Below, in pieces: positions 44,106-48,669 of a stretch of DNA of 64,000 nt; within the stretch, counting starts at the first letter, position 1, and every line of letters begins with the position of its first letter. The stretch comes from Escherichia coli (lineage in GTDB: Bacteria; Pseudomonadota; Gammaproteobacteria; Enterobacterales; Enterobacteriaceae). The stretch lies in the NCBI RefSeq assembly GCF_003991155.1, contig NZ_CP031293.1; one strand, given 5' to 3'. The translations under genes and the position numbers were made by a program. The notes beneath the pieces were generated by a model. The model made no database searches, was not told the origin of the DNA, and worked only from the letters and a program-made list of their open reading frames with translations.

Positions 44106-46256
44106 TTAACGCCGCCGACGGCGTGGGGATTTCGTTTTTTCTTTCTTTTTAACTATACCTTCAGGGACTTCCGGTTGCTCTATCGGAAATACCGGTAATG
44201 CATCCAGTAGCCGCTTGCCGTAGTTTTTGGTGAGCAAGCGTTTATCGTAAATCACCACTTCGCCCCAGCAACCGTGGCTTCGAATCAGTCGCCCAACCTG
44301 CTGAATCAGGTTAAACGAGGCGCTCGGCAGGCTTTGCACCTCAAACGGATAGCGGTTGAGGCTTTTCAGCCATTCCCCTTCGGTGATCACCACGGGGCTG
44401 TCGATGGGCGGAAAAGCGATTTTGTGGATATGCACCTGGCTGAGCAGATCGCCTTTCAGATCAAGCCCTTCGGCAAATGACTGTAAGCCCACCAGCACGC
44501 TGCGCTCACCGTTGGCGACGCGTTTGCGGTGCAGTTCAACTAAACGGTAACGCGGCTGATCGCCCTGCACCAGCAACATCAGACGTAAATCCGTCACATA
44601 GTCGAGAAAGCGCTGCATCGCCCGTCCGCTGGCAAACAGTACCAACATACCGAGATGTTTTTTGCTCTCCACCTGCTTACGGAAAAAGGCCGCCATTTCG
44701 GCAATATGCTGCTCTTCGTTGTCGAGGGAAGGCTCAACGCGCATCCGGGGAATAACAATTTTGCCCTGTTCGCAGTGGTTAAAGGGGGAATCCAGCGCCA
44801 CAAAACGGTCGCCCGCTTTCTCTTTCAGCCCACTCATCTCCTGCAAACGCGAAAAACTGTTCAGCGAACGCAAGGTTGCGGAGGTAACAATAATGTGCGG
44901 AATACTGCGCCACAGCAGCCTTTCCAGTTGGTCGCTAACACGAATACCCACACAGTGAAACCAGAGATGCAGCTGCCCTTCGCGCTCTTCCCGCGTCGCC
45001 CATTTGGTCACCGGCGCACCGGAAGATTGCGCCAGAGACGCCAGCCGCCAGAGTTTGCTTTGCGCCTCGAACATCCCCAACGCGCGGTTCATCTGCAAAA
45101 TCAACCGATGCAGGCGTACAATGTCATGGCTGCCGGTTTTCTCACTTAAATCGTTAAGAAATAACTCCGCCAGGCCACGCAGCATCTCGGTGAGTTTTGC
45201 CAGCCGCTGGCAGATCTCCAGTACTTCATCAGGCAGTTCGCCCATCGCAAAACGGTGCTCTGCCTCCTGCCCGGCAGGCATGTAGAGGTTGAGAATGTTG
45301 TTTAACGAGGCGATAAGCTCATACAACTCTTCACAATGGGCATTCAAACGTTCAGGGATCGCCAGCGGCGGGATGGTCTTCGGGCGAAACTGCTCCATGC
45401 AGGTAGCGACCAGTTTCGTGAACAAGTCCAGCTGTAGCCGATACCACGGTGCGGTGATTTCTGCACTCATCTCCAGCGCATCCCGCGCCACATCCGGCAG
45501 GTGATGACCTTCGTCCAGCACCAGCAGTAAATTTTTCGGGTCAGGCAATACGGCTTCGCTTTCCATCGCCGCCATCACCAGCGCATGGTTTGCCACCACC
45601 ACTTCCGCTTCCTGAATCTCCCGACGAGCGACAAAAAACGGGCATTCGCGATAGTAATAACAGTTGCGGTTAAGGCAACTGGCCTTGTCGGTGCTCAAAC
45701 GACGCCAGAGATCGTCATCTATAGCGATATCAGTATGATCACGCAGACCATCCCATTTATAAGTGTCGAGATCGCCCTTCAGCTTCGCACAACGTTTTTG
45801 TTCTTCCTGATTGTTCGGCGTCAGTTCGTCGTCAAGAAACGCCAGCAAATCCTGTTGCGTGGGTTCAGTGCTGGCGAGCGCCGTCAGATTACGCGGACAA
45901 ACGTAGCGCCCACGCCCAAAAGCGGCAGTGAATTTAAGATCGGGAATGATCTTTTTCAGCAGCGGTAAATCTTTACTGTAGATCTGATCCTGCAATGCCA
46001 CGTTGGCGGTACTCACCACCAGCGTTTTTTGCTCTTCGCGGGCAATGGCGATGCCAGGGATCAAATAGGAGAGCGTTTTCCCAACGCCAGTGGGGGCTTC
46101 AATCGCCAGATGCCGCCCTTCTTCTCCGGCCAGCGTTTTGGCGACGTCCGCAATCATCTGCCGCTGCGGCGCACGGGGAATAAAGTCGGGGATCTGTTCC
46201 TGAAGCGCCTTATACCAGGCGGCAATTTGCGCTTTAAGCGCGGCGGTTAATGCCAT
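44106..46256 (-). CDS. dinG: ATP-dependent DNA helicase DinG (Fe-S, superfamily 2)
   Basis: 716-aa ORF with Walker A GVGKTLSYL, DEGHH box and Fe-S cysteines. Confidence 0.93.
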   Translation of the reverse strand: MALTAALKAQIAAWYKALQEQIPDFIPRAPQRQMIADVAKTLAGEEGRHLAIEAPTGVGKTLSYLIPGIAIAREEQKTLVVSTANVALQDQIYSKDLPLLKKIIPDLKFTAAFGRGRYVCPRNLTALASTEPTQQDLLAFLDDELTPNNQEEQKRCAKLKGDLDTYKWDGLRDHTDIAIDDDLWRRLSTDKASCLNRNCYYYRECPFFVARREIQEAEVVVANHALVMAAMESEAVLPDPKNLLLVLDEGHHLPDVARDALEMSAEITAPWYRLQLDLFTKLVATCMEQFRPKTIPPLAIPERLNAHCEELYELIASLNNILNLYMPAGQEAEHRFAMGELPDEVLEICQRLAKLTEMLRGLAELFLNDLSEKTGSHDIVRLHRLILQMNRALGMFEAQSKLWRLASLAQSSGAPVTKWATREEREGQLHLWFHCVGIRVSDQLERLLWRSIPHIIVTSATLRSLNSFSRLQEMSGLKEKAGDRFVALDSPFNHCEQGKIVIPRMRVEPSLDNEEQHIAEMAAFFRKQVESKKHLGMLVLFASGRAMQRFLDYVTDLRLMLLVQGDQPRYRLVELHRKRVANGERSVLVGLQSFAEGLDLKGDLLSQVHIHKIAFPPIDSPVVITEGEWLKSLNRYPFEVQSLPSASFNLIQQVGRLIRSHGCWGEVVIYDKRLLTKNYGKRLLDALPVFPIEQPEVPEGIVKKKEKTKSPRRRRR

Positions 46257-46270
46257 GAGAAAACCTGAAA

Positions 46271-46290
46271 TACTGTATAAACAGCCAATA
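46271..46290. promoter_or_regulatory. LexA (SOS) box candidate of dinG, non-canonical (tattggctgtttatacagta on the dinG strand)
   Basis: Plus-strand tactgtataaacagccaata lies 15 bp upstream of the dinG start; it contains CTGT...ACAG half-sites in an unusual arrangement that matches what I recall for dinG. Confidence 0.6.
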
Positions 46291-46426
46291 TTGTGGCATT
46301 TTTCGGTTTTCAGGGGTAATGGTTTTTCTGTTTCTGGAAAGCGGCTCGCAATAACGTTTTCTGGCTGTGGGGTTTTCTCGCAACAGAAGAAACATCATTG
46401 CGTAGTAAAAGACAATGCACGCAGGC

Positions 46427-46708
46427 TTATTGCGCTGGTGGCCATTGCAGGGCGGTATGTAAAACACGCAGTACCGAGAGCGTATCGCCCTCCACTTGGT
46501 AGATCAGCACATAATGCGGCCTGACAACGGCTTCATGTGTACCAGCGACTCGTCCGGCCCGGTACATCTCCGGGCGTTCACAGGCCTGTTCCGCAATGGC
46601 TTCAAATTGATTATCAAGGGCTATTGCCGCTAGCGGATTATCTTTACTGATGTATTCCATGATTTGCTCCCTGTCAGACAGGGACATTGGCTTCCATTCC
46701 AGACGCAT
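46427..46708 (-). CDS. ParE/RelE-superfamily toxin, 93 aa
   Basis: Translation MRLEWKPMSLSDREQIMEYISKDNPLAA...PEMYRAGRVAGTHEAVVRPHYVLIYQVEGDTLSVLRVLH has the ParE-like layout; the start overlaps the upstream gene's stop (TAATG). Confidence 0.75.
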   Translation of the reverse strand: MRLEWKPMSLSDREQIMEYISKDNPLAAIALDNQFEAIAEQACERPEMYRAGRVAGTHEAVVRPHYVLIYQVEGDTLSVLRVLHTALQWPPAQ

Positions 46709-47148
46709 TAATCCCCCTTCAGCAAGGCTTTTTTACGGGCAGCAAATAGACTTTTGGCCTCTTCATGAGAGAGCGCCGGGCGTGGATCGTCAATGGCGGC
46801 CTGTACCTGTTCACGAAACCAGGCGTCATACGCGGCAGCTTCATGAGCTCGTTTTAATGCCTCTGCCCTGTCTGGTCGGGTCGTTTTCTTCTGACCGTCC
46901 GGGTCGTAATGAGAGGCGTCGACTTCAAACCGGGCAATACCAACATCTTTCAGGTAGTTGACAACCGTTTCCAGCCGTTTAAACAAGCGAATTTGCCGAC
47001 TGCGTTGTGCTGCAAGAGGCCGTTCAGTGTGGCCGTATTTCACGGTCAACGACCAGCCTCCCTGGGTGCCAATAACGTGTGCTGCATCCACTACGCCAGA
47101 TTCAACCAGTTTATGTAAGGTTGAGTGATCGATCGTTTCTGGTGCCAT
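46708..47148 (-). CDS. Putative cognate antitoxin / DNA-binding partner of the ParE-like toxin, atypical 146 aa; family unresolved
   Basis: Translationally coupled directly upstream of the toxin. The C-terminal segment (AAYDAWFREQVQAAIDDPRPALSHEEAKSLFAARKKAL) looks like a toxin-neutralising tail; the N-terminal ~90 aa do not show an obvious RHH, AbrB or HTH signature to me. Confidence 0.6.
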   Translation of the reverse strand: MAPETIDHSTLHKLVESGVVDAAHVIGTQGGWSLTVKYGHTERPLAAQRSRQIRLFKRLETVVNYLKDVGIARFEVDASHYDPDGQKKTTRPDRAEALKRAHEAAAYDAWFREQVQAAIDDPRPALSHEEAKSLFAARKKALLKGD

Positions 47149-47304
47149 AATGCGCTAACCTCTTTGTATACGGCATGCAATTTATAATTAAAGATAGCGC
47201 AATTAATAATAAATTGCAGCACCTTAATCGTAAATTGCCCAGGATAAAATTGCGGTAGAAAGAGATTTGTTGCGAATATGCCGGGCATCGCCCGGCATAA
47301 AAGA

Positions 47305-48669
47305 TTACTGCGCAGCGGCAGGTTTACGCGGACGGCGACGGCGTTGTTGTTCGCCTGCCGGTTTGGCATCACCAAGACGACGAGATGTTTTTTCTGCGGG
47401 CTTCGCGCTAGCTGATTTCGCACCACCTTCTCCACGGCGTGGTTGCTGTTGACCGCGACCACCACCTTGCCCACGACCGCCGCCGCCACGTTGCTGGCGA
47501 CCATTCTGGATTGGTTCCGCTTTGATTGACGGGTCCGGCTCATAGCCAGGAATCGCAATGCGCGGGATCTCTTTTTTCAGCAGTTTTTCGATATCACGCA
47601 GCAGTTTGTGTTCATCAACACACACCAGCGACAACGCTTCACCGGTAGCAGCCGCACGACCGGTACGCCCGATACGGTGGACATAATCTTCCGGTACGTT
47701 TGGCAGTTCATAGTTGACCACGTGCGGCAGCTCTTCAATATCCAGGCCGCGCGCAGCGATGTCAGTTGCCACCAGTACACGAATATCGCCCGATTTAAAA
47801 TCAGCCAGCGCACGGGTACGCGCACCTTGCGATTTATTGCCGTGGATCGCCGCACTGCGGATGCCATCTTTATTGAGCTGTTCAGCCAGATGGTTAGCGC
47901 CATGTTTGGTACGGGTAAACACCAGCACCTGCTGCCAGTTCCCTTTCCCAATCATATGCGACAGCAATTCGCGTTTGCGTTTCTTATCAACAAAGTGAAC
48001 ATGCTGGGTCACCTGATCAGACGCGGTATTGCGGCGTGCCACTTCGATTTCCAGCGGGTTGTGCAACAGTTTTTCCGCCAGGGCTTTAATATCGTCAGAG
48101 AAGGTCGCGGAGAACAACAGGTTCTGGCGCTTCGCTGGCAATTTTGTTAACACGCGACGGATATCGTGGATAAAGCCCATGTCGAGCATGCGGTCAGCTT
48201 CATCAAGGACGAGGATTTCAACCTGATCCAGCTTCACCGCATTCTGATGTTCCAGGTCCAGCAGACGTCCCGGCGTTGCCACCAGCACATCAACGCCGCC
48301 GCGCAACTTCATCATCTGCGGGTTAATGCTGACACCGCCAAACACCACCAGCGAACGGATATTCAGGTATTTGCTGTAATCACGGACGTTTTCGCCAATC
48401 TGCGCCGCCAGTTCACGGGTTGGGGTAAGAATGAGCGCACGTACCGGACGACGCCCTTTGGCGTGCGGCTGGCGAGTGATCAGGTGTTGCAACAGCGGCA
48501 GCGTAAAGCCCGCTGTTTTGCCGGTACCGGTCTGGGCGCTGGCCATCAGGTCGCGGCCTTCCAGCACCGCAGGGATCGCCTGCTGCTGAATAGGGGTGGG
48601 TTCACGGTAACCCTGCTCGGCAACGGCGCGCAGGATATCAGGGCTTAAACCCAAAGAATCGAAAGACAT
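47305..48669 (-). CDS. rhlE: ATP-dependent DEAD-box RNA helicase RhlE
   Basis: 454-aa ORF with Q-motif, Walker A (AQTGTGKT), DEAD box and a basic Gly/Arg-rich C-terminal tail. Confidence 0.93.

Follow-up and report, generated by a model that had tools for sequence, protein, structure and literature searches.

The interval between rhlE and dinG on the chromosome of this Escherichia coli strain carries two overlapping genes which are, as judged from sequence, a real two-gene ParE toxin-antitoxin operon. We consider it probable that this cassette is a chromosomal type II operon of the PaaA2-ParE2 class, in which the antitoxin bears, in front of a PaaA2-type toxin-neutralising region, a ParC-like domain predicted to bind a dyad in the operon's own promoter. 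The pair was analysed within a window of 64,000 nucleotides, by which we mean the whole stretch of DNA examined. An initial annotation of this window had singled out the rhlE-dinG pair as an atypical ParE-family system, and that reading is supported as essentially correct, with the amendments given below.

Both open reading frames lie on the minus strand, the gene for the 146-aa antitoxin (46708..47148) upstream and that for the 93-aa toxin (46427..46708) downstream and co-oriented with it. The ORF listing and the sequence agreed exactly with the coordinates, lengths and TAATG overlap originally claimed for the pair, base 46708 being common to the TAA stop of the longer frame and the ATG start of the shorter one, a one-base overlap which reads TAATG on the minus strand. 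The features of the interval and its flanks are as follows.

47305..48669, minus strand, rhlE, from the ORF listing
47277..47299, minus strand, rhlE terminator hairpin with 10-bp perfect arms, kept in the K-12 alignment and marking the left junction
47159..47165, minus strand, Shine-Dalgarno sequence AAAGAGG, 10 nt before the antitoxin ATG, read from the sequence
46708..47148, minus strand, gene of the predicted 146-aa two-domain antitoxin (ParC-like plus PaaA2), from the ORF and the PF28031/PF21217 matches of its homologues
46879..47148, minus strand, ParC-like N-terminal domain, codons 1-90, comprising helix a1, a three-stranded sheet, helix a2 and a short strand
46714..46875, minus strand, predicted PaaA2-type toxin-neutralising region, codons 92-145, comprising two helices, 92-120 and 128-145
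46427..46708, minus strand, gene of the 93-aa ParE-family toxin, from the ORF, profile matches and pN/pS
46271..46290, minus strand, dinG LexA (SOS) box, an exact match to TATTGGCTGTTTATACAGTA, within conserved sequence on the downstream side of the cassette
44106..46256, minus strand, dinG, from the ORF listing

Over 46200-47350 the sequence, which is chromosomal, is shared at 100% identity with SMS-3-5 and many further strains. The sequence TATTGGCTGTTTATACAGTA is the experimentally characterised SOS box of dinG (PMC8265657), and its presence at 46271-46290 bears out the claimed adjacency of the pair to the SOS-regulated dinG promoter. The box lies 137 bp downstream of the toxin stop codon on the same strand. 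Between the two there is only a weak terminator-like hairpin, and transcriptional read-through from the toxin-antitoxin operon into dinG is possible.

The partner of the toxin had been described as over-long, with a C-terminal tail resembling a toxin-binding segment. At 146 aa it is about twice the usual antitoxin length, and its residues 104-130 were matched by the Pfam family PaaA2 (PF21217) at 4.2e-10. A longer segment, residues 82-139, aligned to the PaaA2 structures 3zbe and 5czf, at 2e-4 when the single sequence was used and at 1.5e-6 with a profile. The model NF050103 (RelB family antitoxin) covered residues 102-131 only and, at 47.1 bits, fell short of its cutoff of 50. Two long helices in the AlphaFold model, 92-120 and 128-145, match the PaaA2 region, and newer RefSeq annotations name the protein 'antitoxin PaaA2 family protein'. 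Residues ~92-145 are predicted to form a PaaA2-type toxin-neutralising domain, the two helices of which would wrap around the toxin and neutralise it, as PaaA2 does.

The N-terminal ~90 residues had been said to show no RHH, AbrB, Phd or HTH signature, and Pfam-A and NCBIfam profile searches with the 146-aa protein indeed returned no match to RHH, HTH, AbrB/SpoVT or Phd/YefM families. There is no usual DNA-binding fold, but the region can be classified as PF28031, 'ParC-like'. Residues 1-~90 had no match in the Pfam-A library searched, which was without PF28031. Residues 6-83 covered 77 of the 80 positions of the NCBIfam model NF041544 (ParC partition-associated) with an E-value of 4.4e-8; the score of 32.7 bits lies far below the equivalog cutoff of 95, and the protein is thus not assigned as a ParC equivalog. 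Precomputed annotation places PF28031 on the N-terminal region of a cluster of 99% identity (P0001) and of nearly all 120 listed homologues, the architecture of the homologues being PF28031 followed by PF21217. On these matches, the N-terminal ~90 residues are a member of this recently defined Pfam family.

Structure prediction for the 146-aa protein alone gave the same division into a ParC-like domain and a PaaA2 tail. The AlphaFold model was built with an alignment of 129 sequences, and a single-sequence model (pLDDT 47) was set aside. The alignment-based model had a mean pLDDT of 91.4, with values of 92-98 over residues 1-80 and lower confidence in the linker between the N-domain and the C-terminal helices. 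Within the N-domain, a helix (8-17) is followed by strands 20-28, 31-38 and 41-46, a second helix (59-69) and a short strand (75-77), giving a confidently predicted alpha-beta3-alpha-beta fold. No solved relative and no known DNA-binding domain was found to match this predicted fold.

Homologues of the antitoxin are widespread. The full-length protein recovered 895 clusters at E<=1e-3, the best 120 of them at 61-99% identity, and the N-domain alone recovered 433 representative clusters. Among the best 150 N-domain matches, about one third carried a PaaA2-like tail, and most of the others were stand-alone proteins of 80-125 aa. A locus scan was made with one genome per species, using patterns from the narrower of two alignments as the broader one was too diverse, and it yielded 80 loci from Enterobacterales, Pseudomonas, Burkholderiales, Rhizobiales and others. 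The 80 loci span alpha-, beta- and gamma-proteobacteria, and 77 of them have the gene of a homologue of the 93-aa ParE toxin as the next one downstream. The atypical pair is thus present at rhlE-dinG, as had been noted, but it is not peculiar to that locus.

Copies of the pair were also found on plasmids, in Klebsiella (IncFIA, 76.6% identity) and on pXCAW58 of Xanthomonas citri, where it adjoins repA, and the pair belongs to a large conserved two-domain antitoxin/ParE family of the chromosomes and plasmids of Proteobacteria. Stand-alone ParC-like genes on plasmids adjoin parA, parB and trfA, in plasmid maintenance regions. In the neighbourhoods of the homologous loci and plasmid copies, no other regulator gene was conserved beside the pair. 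Neither protein had a match among the anti-phage defence systems of PADLOC, the PHROGs matches were to families of unknown function only, with the exception of one marginal RelE-like toxin match, and phage carriage was seen for the stand-alone N-domain in only nine Burkholderia phages. The TA6 system of the P. syringae plasmid pPsv48C has an antitoxin annotated as a 'stability determinant' with no predicted domain, which might be a relative. The family is already represented in Pfam and in newer RefSeq annotations. A literature search for the fused ParC-like/PaaA2 family, for PF28031 antitoxins and for these E. coli proteins returned nothing, experimental characterisation included.

The region upstream of the antitoxin gene holds a putative promoter and a set of inverted repeats, which are listed here from the distal to the proximal end.

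47248..47253, no strand assigned, extra half-site AATTGC, the most distal, from an inverted-repeat scan
47233..47238, no strand assigned, extra half-site AATTGC, upstream of the -35 hexamer
47214..47219, minus strand, putative -35 hexamer CTGCAA (TTGCAA in the family consensus), located by aligning the region with that consensus
47199..47217, no strand assigned, core dyad GCAATTAATAATAAATTGC, a putative operator, an inverted repeat spanning the -35 hexamer and the spacer
47191..47196, minus strand, inferred -10 hexamer TATCTT, 17 nt after the -35 hexamer, with the consensus TAnnAT directly after the right arm
47177..47182, no strand assigned, extra half-site GCAATT, between the -10 hexamer and the Shine-Dalgarno sequence

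An automated promoter scan gave another pair of hexamers 15 bp upstream (-35 TTTACG, 47234..47229; -10 TATTAT, 47211..47206), and the dyad overlaps the promoter in either placement. Five GCAATT/AATTGC hexamers fall within the 129 bp from the rhlE terminator to the antitoxin start, against 0.09 expected from the window-wide rate, and half-sites equivalent to that at 47177..47182 are present in the Enterobacterales loci L006-L009, L011 and L014.

When the homologous loci were compared, 57 out of 81 had a GCRA-N10-12-TYGC dyad in the 160 nt before the start codon, where chance would give 0.06 per 160 bp. In nearly all copies its spacer is 11 nt and its distance from the start codon 48-77 nt; the core form is the 19-bp GCAA-N11-TTGC. 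The consensus of 52 unique sites is TTGCAATcTAttATTaATTGCgTA..AT, its left arm coinciding with a -35-like TTGCAA and its right arm immediately followed by the -10 element TAnnAT. The interval thus has what is looked for in an autoregulated type II operon, namely an inverted repeat which overlaps the -35 and -10 elements and is conserved among homologues. We know of no conserved element in the spacer of sigma-70 promoters, and our main argument for a protein-binding site, rather than a promoter alone, is that the right arm of the dyad sits in this spacer. The arm, TTGC(R), is held at the fixed distance of 11 nt across three proteobacterial classes. On two different Aeromonas plasmids the same dyad (GCAAGATGRCTTGTTTTGC) precedes, by 73 nt, a ParC-like gene that stands alone without a PaaA2 tail, and for this reason we tie it to the N-domain and not to the PaaA2 tail or to the toxin. 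The dyad thereby points to autoregulation via the ParC-like N-domain. We infer that this alpha/beta domain binds GCAA-N11-TTGC, probably as a dimer, at a site extending from the -35 hexamer as far as the border of the -10, to which E. coli adds three half-sites, and that antitoxin bound at the dyad would repress the operon's own promoter.

The pair might also be of the PaaA2-ParE type with a ParC-like domain that is not an operator binder but serves in oligomerisation, in protease or partner recognition or in a partition-related role, the upstream element being a strong promoter that a host factor might read. We regard this as unlikely, though it has several observations behind it. As the left arm coincides with the -35-like TTGCAA, part of the conservation of the dyad may be that of a mere promoter; no significant covariation was seen between the inner positions of the arms (21/36 for the best pair, with 15.9 expected; 261/5000 shuffles), and the dyad was absent upstream of the more distant stand-alone ParC-like genes of Herbaspirillum, X. 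campestris and a Burkholderia phage. The absence of a known DNA-binding domain matching the N-domain fold, the parA, parB and trfA neighbours of stand-alone ParC-like genes on plasmids and the lack of a demonstrated activity for the ParC of IncP-9 plasmids (PMC12421886) are on the same side. Against it, a promoter alone would not account for a right arm kept in the spacer at constant distance in three classes, the three further E. coli half-sites lie outside the core promoter, the dyad accompanies a stand-alone N-domain gene as well, and the pair has no other conserved regulator gene beside it. Binding of the dyad by the ParC-like domain is thus the reading that we prefer.

The assignment of the 93-aa protein to the ParE/RelE superfamily, made at the outset, was upheld by a match to the Pfam family ParE_toxin (PF05016) with an E-value of 1.2e-13, and among solved structures the single sequence was closest to ParE2 of E. 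coli O157 (5cw7_B, 1.2e-6). A family profile of 19 toxins from homologous loci was then searched against the PDB. ParE2 again ranked first (6.5e-16), and was followed in order by the Mesorhizobium ParE (5ceg, 6.8e-7), 6x0a (9e-6), 6xrw of Pseudomonas (3.5e-4), the Shewanella toxin 7etr, Caulobacter ParE1 and M. tuberculosis ParE1, with 3kxe scoring 0.03. ParE2 and five other ParE structures outranked every RelE/YafQ chain, and YafQ/RelE-like chains appeared only as partial alignments over residues 50-82 with E>=0.24. Since the profile ranks ParE structures above the YafQ/RelE-like chains, we place the toxin in the ParE branch, closer to ParE than to RelE, YoeB, YafQ or HigB proteins in this search. 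Its conserved C-terminal motif LRVLH..Q.WP also aligns with ParE2. By homology to ParE2, the toxin would most likely interfere with DNA topoisomerase/gyrase and not cleave mRNA.

ParE and RelE have one superfamily fold, and many genomes carry this protein under the RefSeq product name 'mRNA interferase toxin, RelE/StbE family'. It scored 38.3 bits with TIGR02385 (RelE/StbE), above the cutoff of 27.9, and an RNase activity is for that reason possible. That the toxin is a ribosome-dependent RelE/StbE-type mRNA interferase, and not a ParE-type topoisomerase poison, nevertheless seems to us quite improbable, for all its significant solved relatives are ParE proteins, the short alignments to RelE/YafQ-like chains stay at E>0.2, the C-terminal motif is shared with ParE2 and the partner domain is the one that neutralises ParE2. 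The RefSeq label is probably too specific, and we retain the toxin as a predicted ParE.

The initial annotation had held that the pair replaces ybiA, which in K-12 lies between rhlE and dinG on the opposite strand. In a BLAST comparison, K-12 homology ended at 47278 on the side of the rhlE terminator (90% over 164 bp) and resumed at 46355 on the side of dinG (99.6%), from which it follows that a 922-bp cassette (46356..47277) stands in place of the 707-bp REP and ybiA segment of K-12 (832264-832970). A tblastn search of all 64 kb gave no YbiA-like sequence (best E = 1.2), in keeping with the replacement. Neither terminal repeats nor transposon ends nor a target duplication were found to flank the cassette. 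Of 5426 complete E. coli genomes, 324 (~6%) have it, always chromosomal and in single copy, as two allele groups, 67 genomes at >=99% identity and 257 at about 97.8%. The K-12-type ybiA was found in 3432 genomes, and much of the remainder, for example LF82, has a 198-bp NADAR pseudogene remnant. E. whittamii has the cassette at this site too, as part of 6 kb of collinear sequence that is 93.4% identical.

Between the E. coli alleles and E. whittamii, pS was 0.06-0.20 and pN/pS 0.00-0.21 across the two genes; among Escherichia alleles the antitoxin gene gave 0.00-0.09 and the toxin gene 0.08-0.21. These values show that both genes are under purifying selection, and with the copy at the same site in E. 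whittamii they lead us to view the cassette as old in Escherichia and selectively maintained; a recent insertion was rejected on the same grounds. Although chromosomal toxin-antitoxin loci often decay and only 324 of the 5426 genomes have this one, it is barely credible that it is an inactive, decaying remnant without present function, given the low pN/pS at appreciable pS, the E. whittamii copy, the retained promoter and dyad, and the two ORFs, which are intact in every allele examined.

The nearest known system is the paaR2-paaA2-parE2 module of the E. coli O157:H7 prophage CP-933P, reportedly described by Hallez in 2010 and Sterckx in 2016. The rhlE-dinG operon resembles it in the closest solved relative of its toxin, which is ParE2, in the C-terminal ~55 residues of its antitoxin, which match PaaA2, and in having the antitoxin gene first. 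In the O157 system, however, PaaA2 is a protein of 63 aa without a DNA-binding domain, the operon has three genes, requires the separate HTH regulator PaaR2 and resides in a prophage immunity region (PMC8630535). Here, in contrast, there are two genes and no paaR, an extra ParC-like domain of ~90 residues and a core-chromosome intergenic site. The three-component paaR-paaA-parE order was not found, as rhlE and its terminator come next upstream, with no intervening ORF for a regulator. ParE2 has been shown to co-localise with the nucleoid and to induce SOS, its precise target being stated as unresolved, and the same authors ask whether an ancestral DNA-binding domain of PaaA2 has decayed (PMC8630535).

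Canonical parDE systems (RK2, Caulobacter, Vibrio cholerae, M. tuberculosis) likewise combine a ParE toxin with an antitoxin made up of an ordered N-domain and a toxin-wrapping C-terminal region, and their autoregulation via an operator overlapping the promoter is the logic expected here too. The N-domain of ParD, however, is a ribbon-helix-helix, whereas the present antitoxin has no RHH signature and a predicted alpha-beta3-alpha-beta fold, and the similarity of the toxin to the canonical ParE proteins is weak (E = 0.03-0.13). The N-domain finds its counterpart in the ParC proteins of the IncP-9 plasmids NAH7/pWW0, by the alignment to NF041544 and the PF28031 matches mentioned above. IncP-9 ParC is a stand-alone protein of ~80 aa encoded in a parABRC cluster, in contrast to the present domain, which is fused to a PaaA2 tail and has no adjacent par genes. 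It has no known function, is dispensable for plasmid stability and caused no change in the transcription of the genes tested (PMC12421886).

For E. coli, these findings make the rhlE-dinG interval a three-state polymorphism of intact ybiA, ybiA remnant and cassette. They also put a predicted ParE-type toxin operon in the same orientation as dinG and a short distance upstream of its SOS-controlled promoter, where it could matter for dinG expression. For the family, a wider proposal can be made, the odds of which we judge to be about even: that ParC-like domains are a new sequence-specific DNA-binding class, with an eL38-like alpha/beta fold, which recognises GCAA-N11-TTGC on behalf of a large antitoxin family, and that the two-domain protein is the complete form of the PaaA2 lineage, the O157 PaaA2 having lost the domain and become dependent on PaaR2. 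The type II antitoxins that have been characterised draw on only a few DNA-binding folds (RHH, HTH, AbrB/SpoVT and Phd/YefM), and if the ParC-like domain binds the dyad, a structurally different operator-binding module would be added to that set. Such binding would be relevant, too, to the question raised for PaaA2-ParE2 of whether a DNA-binding domain was lost from an ancestor (PMC8630535). Finally, it would suggest a function for the ParC proteins encoded in plasmid partition clusters (PMC12421886), and thus the first testable one for these orphans of IncP-9 and other plasmids.

The rhlE-dinG interval of E. coli was found to be a three-state polymorphism, being occupied by an intact ybiA, by the toxin-antitoxin (TA) cassette or by the remnant of a NADAR pseudogene. 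Among complete genomes of the species, ybiA was intact in 3432 of 5426 and the cassette was present in 324, while much of the remainder, as exemplified by strain LF82, carried a pseudogene remnant of 198 bp in a shorter interval. The same cassette was also observed at the same site in Escherichia whittamii, within a block collinear with the window at 93.4% identity, the antitoxin being 98% and the toxin 96% identical at the protein level to their counterparts in the window.

Features of the rhlE-dinG interval
Window 46356-47277: TA cassette; K-12 counterpart, 832264-832970
Window 47278-47441: rhlE 3' end and terminator
Window 46419-46435, (-) strand: weak terminator-like hairpin, 5-bp stem
L088 (strain LF82) 764-961: NADAR pseudogene remnant
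L006 (E. whittamii, NZ_JACSQI010000012.1) 150-6149: block holding the cassette

The two flanks of the cassette differed in their relationship to K-12. While the dinG-side flank was 99.6% identical, the 164 bp bordering the cassette towards rhlE (window 47278-47441) showed only 90% identity, a disparity which suggests either that divergent DNA arrived with the cassette or that the C-terminal repeat region of rhlE is hypervariable. At the other end, a terminator-like but weak hairpin with a 5-bp stem overlapped the toxin stop codon, and no strong terminator was found between the TA operon and the dinG promoter.

RefSeq names for identical copies of both proteins were inconsistent across E. coli genomes. 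For the 93-aa toxin, some records gave 'RelE/ParE family toxin' and others 'mRNA interferase toxin, RelE/StbE family', while the 146-aa antitoxin was named 'hypothetical protein' or 'antitoxin PaaA2 family protein'; some relatives in UniProt/AFDB carried the label 'Phd antitoxin'.

The ParC-like domain was also encountered outside the cassette. Small Aeromonas plasmids encoded it as a stand-alone protein of 89 aa, with the same dyad (GCAA-N11-TTGC) upstream of the gene. In one plasmid this gene was followed, after 258 bp, by a separate relB/relE-type pair, and in another it had parA directly downstream. In nine related Burkholderia phages, an unannotated ORF with this domain (36% identity over residues 6-93) was located between the integrase and cytosine methyltransferase genes.

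ParC-like genes outside the cassette
L002 (Aeromonas salmonicida pY47-2) 2998-3267 and 3525-4047: ParC-like gene and relB/relE-type pair
L095 (other Aeromonas plasmid) 1198-1467: ParC-like gene
L094 (Burkholderia phage vB_SR4) about 1198-1510: ParC-like ORF

A further arrangement was represented by P0130, a 171-aa family member from the representative library, in which the ParC-like domain and linker apparently run directly and in-frame into the C-terminal half of a ParE-like toxin, a fusion that is probably the product of a deletion.
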